Source: Escherichia phage adrianh
Strand: one strand, 5' to 3'
DNA: 64,000 nt
Sequence record: MN850614.1
The translations under genes were made by a program, and so were the position numbers. The notes under the pieces are model-generated. The model was not told where the DNA came from. It did not search any database and saw nothing but the letters and a program-made list of their open reading frames with translations. How positions within the stretch are numbered: position 1 is the first letter of the stretch; each line of letters starts with the position of its first letter. Positions 12,294 to 60,347 of the stretch are shown here, in pieces.

Positions 12294-12323
12294 ACATTAC
12301 TGCAAAAAATTATAAAAAGCAAG

Positions 12324-12352
12324 TTGACAATGTACTTGACAAGGTGTTAATC
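12324..12352 (+). promoter_or_regulatory. Sigma70-like promoter in divergent intergenic region
   Basis: TTGACA, 17-nt spacer, TTAATC; contains the ACTTGACAAGGTG motif also present near 28085 and 58190. Confidence 0.45.
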
Positions 12353-12520
12353 TTTGCGAAGTGGGTTTTTACTTAAAAGGTTACTTAACAGTTTAACTAT
12401 ACAGATACTTTAAAACTCTTAAAAGATTATTTAATAGCTTTTAAAAAGCTTTAAAGTATAACGTATAGAATACGTTAAGATAAAAGATTAAAACTTAATA
12501 GTTACTTAAAAGAGGCTTAC

Positions 12521-12943
12521 ATGCAGAAAATGTTTGTTCACCCAGACATAGCTGACTTTGTTAGAGCTTTGCAGAAGTTGGAAGAACTTGACATTGCTGC
12601 TCAACGGGAATATGCTCACCATCACAGGAGAATGGTTGATATACAACATGAAATAGAGTTATCTGAAAACTATGAAGATGACTTAAAATGCTCTGTGTTT
12701 GAGCATATGAAAGATGTTGCTACAGCGAGACGTAAAGCTAAAGACACAGTTGCTTTACTAGATTCTCTTAAAAAGAGGTTGCAAAGTGGTACAGACCTGT
12801 GTAATCTAGCGTCACTGATTAACGATGTTGAAACTTCTTGGGATAGGCACTATTATCCACGTTCTGAAAAGACACTTGACTTTTCTTCATCCGAAAACTT
12901 AAAATGTTCTAGAAAGAAACTTAACCAACTGAGAGAGAAATAA
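12521..12943 (+). CDS. Hypothetical protein
   Basis: 140 aa ORF, first gene of the plus-strand block. Confidence 0.5.
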   Translation: MQKMFVHPDIADFVRALQKLEELDIAAQREYAHHHRRMVDIQHEIELSENYEDDLKCSVFEHMKDVATARRKAKDTVALLDSLKKRLQSGTDLCNLASLINDVETSWDRHYYPRSEKTLDFSSSENLKCSRKKLNQLREK

Positions 12944-12944
12944 T

Positions 12945-13745
12945 ATGAATACCGATGTAGAAAAGATGCTTGAAGAAAAAGGTATTGACGAAGCATTTTT
13001 AATCAATGCCGTAGAAAGCATGGCTATGATTCTTCGTGGTAATAACTACACAGAACAGTTTATGCCTGCAAGCTATAACTTGCCTAAAGACAAGTCTGAT
13101 AACGGTGCTTTTGCAGAACAGGTTAATATGATGTTGACAGACACTACACTTGCTCTGGCATCTATTGCGGTTGGTGTTGATGCACTTGCTGAGTTCATTT
13201 TTTATGAAATGCAAAAGAATGACTATATCAGAATGTCAGATGAAGATAAGGAGTTGTTGCTGACTAAGGACACTGATTTCATTATTGATATGCTTATCTC
13301 ATCAACGAGTGCTGTTATGGCTGTTCTTGAGAAGCGCATGGAAGAGAAACTTTCACGATATGAAAAACTTGATTGGGGCGTAGAAGAATTAAACCCACGA
13401 ATCAAAGAGATTATCCAGCAAACTAAAGAGTCTTTGGAAGAAGCTGTTGAGAATGACTCTGTAGCTGACATCGAACCACTTCAGGTGAAAGTTGCACTGA
13501 TGATTCCAGCTATCTCTACGATGATGAATATCGTTGCACTAATCCAACTTTCACAGATGATGGGTATGAGTATTGAGTTCATTGAGGAGATGACTGGTGG
13601 TGTCAGTCTGCAAGCAATCAATGATGTTTTGGTGAACATTGGTGCTTCAATCATTGAAGAGAAACTACGCATTAACTTTGGTGATGATTTTGTGAAGCAA
13701 ATCTCAGCTATGGCTGAAAAAGAGTCTGCTGAGCAACTGCACTAA
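12945..13745 (+). CDS. Hypothetical protein
   Basis: 266 aa ORF. Confidence 0.55.
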   Translation: MNTDVEKMLEEKGIDEAFLINAVESMAMILRGNNYTEQFMPASYNLPKDKSDNGAFAEQVNMMLTDTTLALASIAVGVDALAEFIFYEMQKNDYIRMSDEDKELLLTKDTDFIIDMLISSTSAVMAVLEKRMEEKLSRYEKLDWGVEELNPRIKEIIQQTKESLEEAVENDSVADIEPLQVKVALMIPAISTMMNIVALIQLSQMMGMSIEFIEEMTGGVSLQAINDVLVNIGASIIEEKLRINFGDDFVKQISAMAEKESAEQLH

Positions 13746-13763
13746 ATCTTTATAAATCTTAAA

Positions 13764-13788
13764 AGCCTCCTTAGTTGGGGGCTTTTTA
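13764..13788 (+). terminator. Rho-independent terminator
   Basis: AGCCTCC / GGGGGCT hairpin followed by TTTTT. Confidence 0.6.
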
Positions 13789-13806
13789 GTAATTAAGGGA
13801 GATAAA

Positions 13807-58338: not shown

Positions 58339-58710
58339 ATGAAAAACAGAACAAACAAAGGCCAGTTTAAAAAAGGCCAATCTGGAAACCCATCTGGAAG
58401 ACCAAAAGGCTCTCGTAACAAAAGCTCACTTGTAAAAGCTCAACTGACCATTGATAATTCTGCTGAGTTTGCTGCAAAACTGTTTGAGGCGATTGTTACA
58501 AGGGACGCTGCTAAGCTTGCAGAGTTCGGGTTAAACACAGACGACGTAACCATCAAGAGTATGATTGAGGTCGGTAAAACCATCTTTACTCACTCAGCAG
58601 GTGAGATGAAAGCACTTGCAGCAGACACTAAGAAAACCACTGATAATGGTGGTCAGCCACAGACAGATAACAAACCAACGTTCTCTGCTGTAGCGACTCT
58701 CAAAAAATAA
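58339..58710 (+). CDS. Hypothetical protein with basic N-terminus
   Basis: 123 aa; GQSGNPSGRPKGSRN segment. Confidence 0.5.
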   Translation: MKNRTNKGQFKKGQSGNPSGRPKGSRNKSSLVKAQLTIDNSAEFAAKLFEAIVTRDAAKLAEFGLNTDDVTIKSMIEVGKTIFTHSAGEMKALAADTKKTTDNGGQPQTDNKPTFSAVATLKK

Positions 58711-58722
58711 TTTTAAAAGGTG

Positions 58723-58757
58723 TTGACAGACTCTACAAAGTTGCTCTAAAGTCTGTC
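58723..58757 (+). promoter_or_regulatory. Promoter-like element with 9-bp inverted repeat (possible operator)
   Basis: TTGACA then palindrome GACAGACT ... AGTCTGTC, about 35 nt upstream of the Ro60-like gene. Confidence 0.4.
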
Positions 58758-58791
58758 ACATCAAACAACAAATGAGAGAAGAGAGTAAAAT

Positions 58792-60207
58792 ATGAGCGAA
58801 TTATTTAAACATGCGCACCTTCATGCAGGTCGAACTGAAAATGGTGCTGTAAACCATACTTCACCAATGTCTGCTCTTGTGGACTTTTACAAAGCTGCTG
58901 GTTCAAGCCGTAGCAATGTAGAAATCTTACCAGACCTGTTCTACAAAGCTTTGCGTGAGGATGTTGATGTTGCAGTTCGTATTTTACTGCATATGCGAGA
59001 TGTACGAGAAGGTATGGGTGAGCGTAAAGCCTTCAGAACTGTTTTGCTTCAAGCAATTGAAGATAAAGTTTTAGAGCCTACACAGGTTCTTCGCATTATG
59101 GATAAGATTGCAGAGCTTGGTCGTTTTGATGACTTCAAAATCTTCGTAGGTACTCGTTTCGAGACAGATGCCTTCAAACATTTAGAAGCAGCATTACTAG
59201 ACCCTGCAACAGCAGGTTTGGCGGCTAAGTGGTTACCACGAGTCAAACCACGTCATAAGCAGTTTGTAAAACGTTTCTGCAAGTTTGCCAACTTGAGTGA
59301 GAAAGAGTACCGCACACTGTTGTCTGCACTATCTGATACAGTTGAGCAAAAAATCTCTGCTAATGAGTTTGGTAAGATTGACTACAGTAAGATTCCTTCG
59401 CTTGCTGCTGCACGTTACCAAAAACTGTTTAACCGTAAAGATGGGGAGCGATACAAAGCTTACATCGAGTCCTTATCAAAAGGTGAGACTAAGATTAACG
59501 CTGGTGCTGTTTACCCATACGATGTGATTAAATCTGTCAAGTATGGTAATGCAGATGTTGCTAATGAGCAGTGGAAAGCACTACCAAACTGGATGGCAGA
59601 GGGTGAAAACATTCTATGTATGTCTGATGTTTCAAGCTCAATGTCTTGGGTGAATTTTGGTTCAATTACTGCTCTTGATATTGGTGTATCACTTGCATTG
59701 TATGTGGCAGAACGCAATACAGGTTGCTTTAAGAATGAGTTAATGGTTTATTCAACAAACCCTCACTTCATCGAACTGAGTGGTGATTTACGAAACCGCC
59801 ATCGTCAGGTGATGCGACATGTTGAATATGGTTCAACTAACTTACAAGCAGCTTTTGACCGTATTCTTGAGACAGGTAAAAGAAACAACTTGACTCAGAA
59901 AGATATGCCAAGTAAGCTTATCATCTTCTCCGATATGGAGTTCAATCAGGTTGATGGGGCTAACGGTCGTACAAACTTTGAAGCAATTCAGAGTAAGTAC
60001 AAAAAAGCTGGATATAAGATGCCACAACTGGTATTCTGGTACTTAGCAAACCGTAATGGTACTTGCGAAGTATCTGTTAAGGATAACGGTGTAGCAATGG
60101 TATCAGGGTTCTCTCCAGCCACTTTAAAAGCTCTGCTTGGTGGTGAGAAGTTTGACCCAATCAGCGTAATGCTCAAAGCAGTAATGATTGACCGTTATAT
60201 CTGGTAA
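58792..60207 (+). CDS. Ro60/TROVE-like protein with C-terminal vWA domain
   Basis: 471 aa; MIDAS-like DVSSSM (DxSxS) followed by GSTN and FSDME motifs in the arrangement seen in Ro60; helical N-terminal part. Confidence 0.45.
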   Translation: MSELFKHAHLHAGRTENGAVNHTSPMSALVDFYKAAGSSRSNVEILPDLFYKALREDVDVAVRILLHMRDVREGMGERKAFRTVLLQAIEDKVLEPTQVLRIMDKIAELGRFDDFKIFVGTRFETDAFKHLEAALLDPATAGLAAKWLPRVKPRHKQFVKRFCKFANLSEKEYRTLLSALSDTVEQKISANEFGKIDYSKIPSLAAARYQKLFNRKDGERYKAYIESLSKGETKINAGAVYPYDVIKSVKYGNADVANEQWKALPNWMAEGENILCMSDVSSSMSWVNFGSITALDIGVSLALYVAERNTGCFKNELMVYSTNPHFIELSGDLRNRHRQVMRHVEYGSTNLQAAFDRILETGKRNNLTQKDMPSKLIIFSDMEFNQVDGANGRTNFEAIQSKYKKAGYKMPQLVFWYLANRNGTCEVSVKDNGVAMVSGFSPATLKALLGGEKFDPISVMLKAVMIDRYIW

Positions 60208-60226
60208 AAAAGTTTTAAAAAGGGTA

Positions 60227-60255
60227 TTGACAATGTGTTTGATACCCTTTAATAT
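60227..60255 (+). promoter_or_regulatory. Sigma70-like promoter
   Basis: TTGACA, 17-nt spacer, TAATAT; 8-bp inverted repeat AAGGGTAT/ATACCCTT spans it. Confidence 0.5.
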
Positions 60256-60317
60256 GTTCTACATAGAAACGAAACGAGAGCTTTTCTAAGATACTGAAAA
60301 ATATTTTAAAAAAGTTC

Positions 60318-60347
60318 TTGACAACCACTAAAAAATAATGTTAAAGT
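60318..60347 (+). promoter_or_regulatory. Promoter upstream of the tRNA cluster
   Basis: TTGACA, 17-18 nt spacer, TAAAGT-like -10; inverted repeat ACCACT/AGTGGT spans the spacer. Confidence 0.45.

Follow-up and report, generated by a model that had tools for sequence, protein, structure and literature searches.

Layout of the window and its two control regions

Escherichia phage adrianh carries in its intergenic regions a series of promoter-like sites that overlap inverted repeats, and these sites are analyzed here in a stretch of 64,000 nucleotides from sequence record MN850614.1 (hereafter, the window). Over positions 12000-20000, the window matched Salmonella phage Felix O1 and close relatives of that phage at 97.3% identity, with 272 phage records giving matches; by this similarity, the window is that of a Felix O1-like phage of the genus Felixounavirus (Ounavirinae). 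Gene order was as in Felix O1. A leftward block ends with a family-A DNA polymerase gene (9564-12293, minus strand), and a rightward block runs from 12521 through nrdA/B/D (the gene preceding the element at 28088 was identified as nrdD by a Pfam match) and rIIA/B to the small early genes at 42.9-49.2 kb. These are followed by a 1.6-kb non-coding stretch, by a leftward block at 50.9-57.9 kb, and by a second rightward block that begins at 58339 and includes the tRNA cluster. Two control regions are divergent, one between the DNA polymerase gene and the gene at 12521 and the other between the 57713-57946 gene (minus strand) and the gene at 58339; their Felix O1 counterparts lie between genes 96 and 97 and between genes 40 and 41.

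Hardly any promoters were found for either divergent control region in the Felix O1 genome paper, which described temporal regulation as not understood, reported no phage-encoded RNA polymerase, and listed 57-bp and 39-bp direct repeats as well as a rho-independent terminator, t42, at the homologue of the element at 60227 (PMC3185647). The record of phage wV8 annotates DR_1 to DR_9, and repeats and promoters are not discussed in the wV8 genome paper. In the record of phage AYO145A, the homologues of the sites at 37075, 58189, and 58723 are annotated as promoters (sigma-70-like), and a neighbouring promoter and terminator are annotated at the place homologous to 55590..55639 on the minus strand. 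Earlier work on Felix O1-like phages has recorded the repeats, the terminator, and the promoters as separate pieces.

Predicted sigma-70-type promoters overlap stem-loops in intergenic regions

The sites share a common architecture, with an A-rich tract (at most sites, e.g., TTTTAAAAAAGTT) followed by TTGACA or TTTACA, a spacer of 16-18 nt, and TAnnnT. Intergenic sense space makes up 8.4% of all positions and strands, and it contained 17 of the 80 TTGACA hexamers of the window (p = 3e-4). A TAnnnT hexamer was found 16-18 nt after 12 of these 17, in comparison to 9 of the 63 located elsewhere (Fisher p = 1.5e-5), and three of the five intergenic hexamers lacking one were the second hexamers of the tandem pairs described below. 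Additional evidence came from a repeated family of the early region, here called type A, for which 41 distinct cassettes were collected from relatives with only TTTACA and a downstream AGATAAAGAG as anchors, the -10 not being a criterion. At 17 nt past TTTACA, T24 and A25 were invariant and T29 was present in at least 90% of the cassettes, with the middle three bases variable, a pattern that bears the signature of a sigma-70 -10 hexamer. Together, the perfect or near-perfect -35 hexamers, the A-rich tracts, the -10 conservation, and the annotations in relatives argue that these sites would act as host sigma-70-type promoters. An earlier note on this DNA had proposed phage-specific promoters; their promoter-like character is borne out, but the hexamers, the A-rich tracts, and the conserved T/A/T of the -10 speak against phage specificity.

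A census of the intergenic regions revealed at least 19 promoters overlapping a stem-loop (Table 1; minus-strand sites are marked (-) in the text). The stem lies inside the spacer at 37075, whereas it begins directly behind the -35, and has the -10 within the loop or the 3' arm, at 9044(-), 17147, 28088, 47790, 58723, 60318, and the six type A cassettes. It encloses the -35 at 60227 and 4504(-), where the T-rich tail forms the -10 region, its 5' arm covers the -10 at 5977(-), and it starts 1-3 nt after the -10 at 33761, 55639(-), and 53571(-). The segment from -37 to +8 folded at -8 kcal/mol or below at 14 of 24 intergenic promoter sites versus 4 of 66 pattern matches elsewhere (Mann-Whitney p = 2.4e-4). 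The four spacer palindromes listed in the earlier note are all present, and three of them fold better than shuffled sequences (z = -2.5 at 37075, -3.4 at 58723, and -3.3 at 60227), the one at 60318 being weaker (z = -1.6); that list was incomplete, since 9044(-), 17147, 47790, 33761, 55639(-), 53571(-), 4504(-), and 5977(-) had been overlooked. The type A cassette scored z = -4.4 and the element after nrdD z = -5.7 (-23.5 kcal/mol), and the latter has a -10-like TAGGCT in its loop (28112-28117), 18 nt from the -35. A GC-rich stem followed by a T-run was observed at 28088, 33761, 55639(-), and 53571(-), and in part at 60227, 4504(-), and 47790. Rfam covariance models applied to the window reached gathering scores for tRNAs only.

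Table 1. Predicted promoters, promoter/stem-loop composites, and type A cassettes of the window
Feature	Position	Strand	Sequence elements
Promoter inside stem	4476..4519	-	TTGACA-17-TATTTT; stem AAGCTATAA/TTATAGCTT; T-rich tail = -10 region
Promoter	5922..5977	-	TTGACA-16-TATACT; 5' arm GGTGAGTA overlaps -10; 3' arm TACTCACC about 20 nt downstream
Composite after HNH endonuclease gene	9016..9045	-	CTTGACA; stem AAGGTGCTC/GAGTACCTT; -10 TACCTT in 3' arm, 17 nt from -35
Tandem -35 promoter	12324..12353	+	TTGACA 12324-12329; second TTGACA 12336-12341; -10 TAATCT 12348-12353; spacer 18 from first
Promoter	17147..17184	+	TTGACA-17-TAGAAT; stem AGAGTATCAA/TTGGTACTCT encloses -10
Composite after nrdD	28088..28134	+	TTGACA 28088-28093; stem-loop 28093-28128; T-run 28129-28134
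Promoter then terminator	33761..33812	+	TTGACA-16-TATGAT; AAGAGGCTCC-TACG-GGAGCCTTTT; predicted start inside 5' arm
rIIA/rIIB intergenic promoter	37075..37104	+	TTGACA-18-TAGAAT; 20-nt palindrome AAGGGGCTTCGAAGCCCCTT (37080-37099) fills spacer
Type A cassette	43115..43150	+	TTTACA-17-TAAAGT; stem GGGGCTTA/TAAGCCCC overlaps end of -10
Type A cassette, identical copy	43587..43622	+	
Type A cassette variant	43933..43968	+	TTTACA-17-TATCTT; stem GGGGTTTAA/TTAAGCCCC, one U.G pair
Type A cassette variant	44535..44569	+	TTTACA-17-TATGAT; stem GGGGCTA/TAGCCCC
Type A cassette, identical copy	45607..45642	+	
Type A cassette, identical copy	46403..46438	+	
Third tandem -35 promoter, early region	47790..47830	+	TTGACA 47790-47795; second TTGACA 47803-47808; -10 TAGATT 47813-47818
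Promoter then terminator	53519..53571	-	TTGACC-17-TATGAT; GGGAGCTATC-GAGA-GGTAGTTCCC + T-run
Promoter then terminator	55590..55639	-	TTGACA-17-TATCTT; AGGCTCC-TTCG-GGAGCCT + T-run
Tandem -35 promoter	58189..58217	+	TTGACA 58189-58194; second TTGACA 58201-58206; -10 TAGGCT 58212-58217; spacer 17
Promoter	58723..58758	+	TTGACA-18-TAAAGT; arms TGACAGACT (58724-58732) and AGTCTGTCA (58750-58758) overlap -35 and -10
Promoter before tRNA cluster	60219..60255	+	TTGACA-17-TAATAT; stem AAAGGGTAT/ATACCCTTT encloses -35; T-rich tail = -10 region
Second tRNA-cluster promoter	60318..60351	+	TTGACA-18-TAAAGT; arms AACCACT/AGTGGTT

Pairing is conserved in the stems through base changes

Comparison with about 30 related genomes from IMG/VR showed that the spacer palindromes are conserved and that the stems are kept while the loops change. 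At the rIIA/B site (37075), the stem GGGGCT/AGCCCC is kept around a tetraloop that reads TCGA, TTGA, TCAA, GAAA, or GCAA, and at 58723 the stem persists through G.T changes with the loop replaced. The nrdD stem covaries from GGTGATGT/ACATCACC to GGTAGTGT/GCACTACC around a near-invariant TAGGCT loop, and the stem at 9044(-) is kept in 23 distinct orthologous sequences. Relatives carry AATCACT or AACTACT (U.G) at 60318, and one lineage has swapped the stem to AACACTA/TAGTGTT along with a -10 TATAGT. The type A stem was 97.5% paired across the 41 variants, 17 of which had U.G at one pair, and in Erwinia phage phiEa21-4, which belongs to a different genus, it shows a GC-to-UA double change.

Pair changes were counted in core stems only, because counts over whole minimum free energy structures were swamped by spurious outer pairs. 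One-sided changes in core stems gave G.U nine times and A.C twice on the sense strand (hand count), and 24 distinct type A stems gave 22 G.U against 8 A.C, the latter mostly at the loop end. Since a transition in a Watson-Crick pair gives G.T or A.C equally often, this bias points to folding of the sense strand, and selection on the stems appears to act there, most simply as RNA. Furthermore, the arms differ from site to site (GGGGCTTA, GACAGACT, AACCACT, GGGTAT, AAGGTGATGT, AGAGTATCAA), so that no single protein could read all of them. The suggestion that the palindromes are built-in operators is thus difficult to maintain: the arms are site-specific, one-sided changes mostly leave G.T on the sense strand, unlike what a double-stranded protein site would show, and instead of a recurring, sequence-conserved half-site at co-regulated promoters we found pairing that is kept through base changes.

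The composites resemble the promoter-early stem-loops of T4-type phages

A closely similar design has been described as promoter-early stem-loops (PeSLs), which are composite promoter/terminator cassettes of the T4-type phages RB49/phi1, T4/PST, and KVP40/nt-1. PeSLs comprise an A/T-rich tract holding the stop codon of the upstream gene, a strong sigma-70 promoter, and a Shine-Dalgarno (SD) sequence and ATG at the 3' end, concentrate between orphan genes in hyperplastic regions, and act as recombination points (PMC2839356; PMC4122927). The cassettes of the window have the same stop codon in an A/T-rich tract, a sigma-70 -35 and -10 about 17 nt apart, SD and ATG within about 100 nt, and a stem-loop of a G-run and a C-run with G-T pairs, positioned between the boxes, over either of them, upstream of the -35, or before the start. 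They likewise occur in many copies between small genes without assigned function in a variable region, with indel breakpoints at the cassettes, and all five positional subclasses of PeSLs (PMC2839356) have examples in the window. The likeness extends to the sequences themselves: RB49 cassettes read TTGACA-GGGGATC...GATCCCC-TATAAT with AAAAAGTTG upstream and GGAGAATCAAAATG downstream, RB49 TTGACAGGGGATC...GATCCCCTATAAT is nearly superimposable on the window site at 37075, and RB49 AAAAAGTTGTTGACAGGGGATCACCGATCCCCTATAAT...GGAGAATCAAAATG is almost superimposable on that site (GTGTTTGACAAGGGGCTTCGAAGCCCCTTAGAAT) and on the local contexts AAAAAAGTTGTTGACA and GGAGATTCAAAAATG.

Some differences were also noted. 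PeSLs are described only in T4-type Straboviridae, whereas the present cassettes belong to the Ounavirinae (Felixounavirus, Kolesnikvirus), a difference of distribution and not of mechanism. Unlike in PeSLs, the main repeated family of the window uses TTTACA, weak -10 hexamers (TAAAGT, TATCTT), and an 11-14-nt loop that contains the -10. In addition, PeSLs are characterized by demonstrated promoter and terminator/attenuator activity and by the formation of mini-circles, whereas promoter and terminator activity of the window's cassettes is predicted from sequence. We found no paper linking PeSLs with Felix O1-like phages in the searched library; this kind of cassette is already known in T4-like phages, and its occurrence in the Ounavirinae appears to be newly described.

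We propose that the elements are probably early or middle host sigma-70 promoters fused to stem-loops that act in RNA, that is, PeSL-like cassettes. Each unit would run from an upstream stop codon in an A/T-rich tract through the -35, a spacer of 16-18 nt, and TAnnnT to a short leader, GGAG, and ATG. The 5' arm of every composite is placed upstream of the predicted start, and consequently the whole hairpin would be carried only by read-through RNA from upstream. A polymerase coming from the upstream gene would transcribe the full hairpin, which would lead to termination or attenuation or would leave a 3'-end or processing hairpin on the RNA, while a polymerase starting at the embedded promoter would make an RNA without the 5' arm and read on. 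Each gene block would thus obtain its own expression level in little space.

Among the earlier suggestions, that of dual promoter/terminator elements is favoured, as it matches the published PeSL cassettes (PMC2839356), although "terminator" goes too far for about half of the hairpin families, which have no T-run and for which "attenuator, or RNA 3'-end or processing hairpin" is the safer description. The hairpins at 28093-28134, 33789-33812, 53519-53542, and 55590-55607 do have the canonical GC stems and T-runs of intrinsic terminators. Unlike in an ordinary terminator followed by a promoter, the hexamers of the window are located inside the stem-loop or abut it, and the T-run is missing from about half of the families. 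Arbiol et al. demonstrated PeSL promoter activity with reporters and found that the PeSL211/210 stem-loop terminates like rrnB T1 (PMC2839356). In the RB49 sequence this stem-loop has no T-run, which makes attenuation by the tail-less hairpins of the window plausible.

Felix O1-like phages are widely used for typing and biocontrol of Salmonella and E. coli. Reading their conserved intergenic "direct repeats" as PeSL-like promoter/attenuator cassettes would provide a testable promoter/terminator map, help to annotate transcription units, and explain how small early genes are swapped between relatives. The design spans T4-type phages and an unrelated myovirus subfamily, suggesting convergence or exchange of early-gene modules. 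As a side observation, PeSLs of RB49 (14723-23308) and cassettes of the window have near-identical flanks, with AAAAAGTTGTTGACA upstream and GGAGAATCAAAATG at the start codon, and the annotations of phiEa21-4 describe several early proteins as similar to RB49 hypothetical proteins; Felix O1-like and RB49-type phages may exchange early-gene modules.

Early-gene gains and losses break at the cassettes

Six type A and six type B cassettes were found within 42.9-48.9 kb, between 15 small open reading frames, in a region whose identity to any of the 256 related records did not exceed 90% and which was mosaic in comparison with all of them. The type A cassette itself occurs at 1527 places in 289 records, nearly all of them Ounavirinae Felix O1-like phages. 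Its conserved lead-in ATAAAGTAC contains the stop codon TAA, every type A hairpin is followed by a conserved AGATAAAGAGCTTTACC, and GGAGA(T/A)TCAAAAATG, which provides the SD sequence and the start codon, lies downstream of the cassettes.

The presence and absence of early genes was compared between the window and six relatives. Breaks fell at cassette edges at 42866|43165 (the 42903 gene and A1), 43670|43912 (A2-A3), 43102|43924 (A1-A3), 46199|47346 (B2-B3), 47981|48834 (B4-B6), and 48565|48834 (B5-B6), and at these breaks a single cassette of the relative often aligned to both flanking cassettes of the window. Gene gains and losses therefore break at cassettes, as the PeSL precedent predicts. 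Because they are repeated, the cassettes would double as recombination points for the gain and loss of small early genes.

The type B cassettes (45241-45300, 46100-46165, 47340-47385, 47890-47950, 48505-48550, and 48838-48880) consist of TAAATTACTAATCAAC, a hairpin GGGAGGTAATAGCCTCCC, and then CACTAAAC...GGAGATTCAAAAATG. In several of them, TAAATT is preceded at 17 nt by TTGATT, TTGCAA, or TTGACG, a placement that would put the hairpin at the 5' end of its own transcript. They also mark indel breakpoints.

A shared motif combines the -35 hexamer with a stem arm

The 24-mer GTTGACAA(T/A)GTACTTGACAAGGTG that the earlier note had placed in two divergent intergenic regions is indeed present, 1-2 nt from the coordinates first given, at 12323-12346 and 58188-58211 (0.00 expected in 100 shuffles). 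An alignment of the two divergent regions extends for 41 nt, starting at the A-tract and stopping just short of the -10; its score is 48, versus at most 29 in shuffles, and the regions are diverged beyond it. The 12-mer core CTTGACAAGGTG occurs four times (0 expected), at 12335, 28087, and 58200 and at 9034-9045 on the minus strand; its recurrence at 28087 had been recognized, whereas the minus-strand copy had escaped notice. At 28087 the core had been taken as the 5' arm of the nrdD terminator, which is correct for AAGGTG (28093-28098) but not for ACTTGAC, located just upstream of the stem. Both there and at 9034(-), the covarying 5' arm is formed by AAGGTG.

The shorter ACTTGACAAGG had 10 matches with at most one mismatch (1.86 expected). 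The base following the -35 hexamer was A at 16 of 24 intergenic promoter sites and the base preceding it was most often C, giving a consensus cTTGACAa (hand count), and the stems at 28093, 9039, 37080, 60219, and 33789 start with AAGG and end with CCTT. The shared ACTTGACAAGG(T/G)G would thus be a -35 hexamer with its preferred flanks that continues into an AAGG... 5' arm with a ...CCTT partner, and kinship between cassettes would add to the resemblance. Such common descent is suggested by the 58.2-kb element (58200), which equals the nrdD element less 13 nt (ACTTGACAAGGTG[ATGTGGGTCTTGA]TAGGCTTA). Concerted evolution of the four CTTGACAAGGTG copies was considered and rejected, as genomes with one altered copy keep the others unaltered.

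Alternative explanations

Several observations weigh against the proposal of PeSL-like cassettes. In two of three 20-kb segments, a scan for generic consensus promoters did not exceed the number of sites found in shuffled sequences; as uninformative, it was replaced by the tests of position, strand enrichment, and conservation given above. The headline sites at 12324 and 58189 have no significant hairpin (z = -1.2 and -1.6); the model covers them as promoters only, and their second TTGACA falls outside its explanation. The type A, 37075, 58723, 60318, 9044(-), 17147, and 5977(-) hairpins, which make up about half of the families, have no T-run, and canonical intrinsic termination is therefore not expected there. 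As to the stems, that at 37075 has a C.A mismatch in the sequences of two relatives, type A core-stem covariation is modest, with one pair changed on both sides and few true double changes, cassettes within a genome are related by copying, so that the pair-change counts are of non-independent events, and the excess of G.U over A.C would be compatible, too, with a fold formed by the sense strand as DNA. Finally, architecture, conservation, the strand bias of stem changes, and cassette breakpoints were observed directly, whereas promoter activity, start sites, and termination or attenuation are predicted from the sequence; the searched literature yielded no transcript 5' or 3' end mapping for any Felix O1-like phage.

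The hairpins could instead be RNA processing or stability elements, such as landmarks for RNase III or RNase E or protectors of 3' ends, whose overlap with promoters would reflect tight packing. This explanation, which we regard as unlikely but deserving of consideration, is largely compatible with that of PeSL-like cassettes and differs from it only in the RNA role of the hairpin. The families without a T-run, the strongly conserved AGATAAAGAGCTTTACC after every type A hairpin, the type B hairpin just downstream of the predicted start in the position of a 5' stabiliser, and the sense-strand G.U bias, which fits any RNA role, would all agree with it. However, no cleavage-site motif was identified, seven families have T-rich tails (28088, 60227, 4504, 33761, 55639, 53571, and 47790), and the RB49 PeSL211/210 stem-loop cut downstream expression like a strong terminator despite having no T-run (PMC2839356).

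That promoters and hairpins co-occur incidentally, through crowding in gaps of 50-90 nt, with the shared 12-mer as a relic of duplication, seems improbable. Intergenic gaps are indeed short, and the derivation of the 58.2-kb element from the nrdD element by loss of 13 nt would suit common descent, but the nested geometry recurs in unrelated sequence families, in another genus (phiEa21-4), and in another family (RB49). Moreover, -10 positions and stem are both conserved where they overlap, and nesting is maintained in long gaps such as the 221-nt gap at 47758-47978.

Operators for a dimeric phage or host DNA-binding protein sitting between the -35 hexamer and the -10 hexamer are very unlikely, although spacer operators are a known design, found for example in MerR-type promoters, and 37080-37099 is a perfect 20-bp palindrome that fills the spacer exactly. 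MerR-family promoters likewise have a palindrome between the -35 box and the -10 box; their spacers are 19-20 bp long and the dyad sequence is conserved for one regulator. In the window, unlike in the MerR type, spacers are 16-18 bp long and pairing rather than sequence is conserved. Because the arms differ between sites, this explanation would call for many different proteins. Furthermore, the loops vary in length from 4 to 17 nt, the stems have been maintained through compensatory and G.T changes with a sense-strand bias, and one lineage carries a different palindrome at 60318 instead.

A hairpin is also part of the early promoters of phage N4 that are used by its virion RNA polymerase. These N4 hairpins have short stems and 3-nt loops and are read as DNA by the phage polymerase, and the N4 early promoters are not known to have full sigma-70 hexamers, unlike the sites described here. 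A corresponding control of the promoters by hairpins acting in DNA, through supercoil-driven cruciform or single-strand hairpin extrusion as in N4 or in engineered cruciform promoters, would accord with inverted repeats inside promoters and with a G.T bias from folding of the sense DNA strand, but it is the least credible explanation, since a cruciform needs both strands to fold and A.C mismatches would arise in the antisense strand at each G.T of the sense strand, extrusion is disfavoured by loops of 11-17 nt, the sites have full sigma-70 hexamers, and there is no evident phage polymerase, none being reported in the Felix O1 genome paper (PMC3185647).

Predicted tandem -35 promoters head the divergent control regions

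Three promoters (12324, 47790, and 58189) carry a second perfect TTGACA inside the spacer, 12-13 nt past the first, in comparison to 0.16 expected, with none of 300 shuffles reaching three. The site at 12324, which has an A-rich tract upstream, heads the rightward replication and nucleotide-metabolism unit, and that at 58189 heads the rightward gp41-like, tRNA, and structural unit, so that two tandem sites head both divergent master control regions. Both hexamers were invariant at the tandem sites in all relatives, while the bases between them were free to vary. At 12324, about 30 relatives had a -10 reading TAATCT or TAGTCT, and the 4-5 nt separating the hexamers varied; at 58189, the -10 read TAGGCT, TAGCCT, or TAAGTT. 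At 47790, a stem of CCCCTTGA (47799-47806) with TCGAGGGG (47822-47829) encloses the -10 and folds with a z of only -1.0. The same tandem arrangement exists at another place in phiEa21-4 (TTGACATTCTACTTGACAGGGGCTAAAGT).

A -10 belonging to the second TTGACA (12336, 47803, and 58201) was sought 16-18 nt downstream, and none was found in the window or in relatives. In the PeSL papers, extra boxes at the wrong spacing appear only as "degraded" copies, whereas the tandem -35 form is strictly conserved here, which argues for function. With the second hexamer at about -23 to -18, sigma region 4 cannot make productive use of it, and Felix O1-like phages encode no recognisable RNA polymerase modifier. 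The second hexamer might serve as a regulator site or compete as a docking site for sigma region 4, or it might be left over from a 12-nt slippage duplication and kept for spacer geometry. A speculative and rather doubtful extension is that the TTGACA-N6/7-TTGACA-N4/6-TAnnnT promoters form a distinct regulated class, with the second hexamer being the target of a phage or host factor or itself a built-in competitor for sigma region 4. If true, this class would supply the temporal switch of Felix O1-like phages. The tandem -35 promoters are the one part of the system that could be new, and their conservation makes them an entry point to the timing of gene expression in these phages.

Two other candidates at these sites were discarded. 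A hairpin at the 24-mer sites 12324 and 58189 scored no better than the z values given above, its AAGTACTT palindrome not being conserved, and TATAAATA at 58218-58225 matches a T4 late-promoter box but is not conserved in relatives.

A leftward promoter for the DNA polymerase gene is predicted at 12314-12322 (minus strand), reading TTGCTT-17-TAATGT, with -10 hexamers TA(A/G)(T/G)GT in relatives. Its -35 adjoins the first rightward TTGACA across a 1-bp gap, and a TATAAT at 12309-12314 (minus strand) is not conserved. A reading of this sequence as a MotA box was noted; TTGCTT stands where a -35 normally does and is one of its ordinary variants.

The leaders downstream of the two control-region tandem promoters (12380-12520 and 58240-58338) were near-invariant even in relatives of 85% identity. 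Nested inverted repeats were found in both, namely, AACGTATAGAATACGTT and AGCTTTTAAAAAGCT at 12.4 kb and AAAAGGCT...AGATATC-TTTCTG-GATATCT...AGCCTTTT at 58.26-58.31 kb. The word CTTAAAAG occurs 26 times in the window (5.35 expected; none of 100 shuffles reached 26), for example at 12372, 12418, 12505, 58238, 58300, 58309(-), and 49444-49868. It is concentrated in these leaders and in the non-coding stretch at 49-51 kb, where some copies form inverted pairs (in the leaders, CTTAAAAGCCTTTTAAG at 58300-58316).

Other repeats and endonuclease genes

Four direct repeats of about 29 nt (TTCATTTTCAAAnTGTGCAGGTA), 40-73 nt apart, occupy 42460-42646, in the space from the terminator that follows the 41608-42393 gene to the first early promoter (42824). 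Similar repeats (TTTTCATTTTCAATTTGTGCATAG) are present at the same genomic position in phiEa21-4 (9300-9500 of its sequence), and they look like iterons or regulator-binding sites. After the early genes, a 1.7-kb stretch without a called gene (49153-50854) is densely filled with short repeated words (CTTGTTAG, CTGTTAAG, CCTTAAAAG, and CTTATAAG) and might represent an end of the genome, a region for packaging, or an origin of replication.

The sequence GACCCCGAAACAGGGGTC, found at 9497-9514(-) and 19195-19212(+), was considered as a terminator and rejected, as it codes for a YDPETGVFTW motif in two HNH/AP2 endonuclease paralogues. These HNH/AP2-type genes (9041-9592, minus strand, and 19132-19656, plus strand) share an identical stretch of 27 nt encoding that motif. 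Some relatives have a longer nrdD and DNA polymerase gene, or extra genes after these, a pattern consistent with homing-endonuclease traffic.

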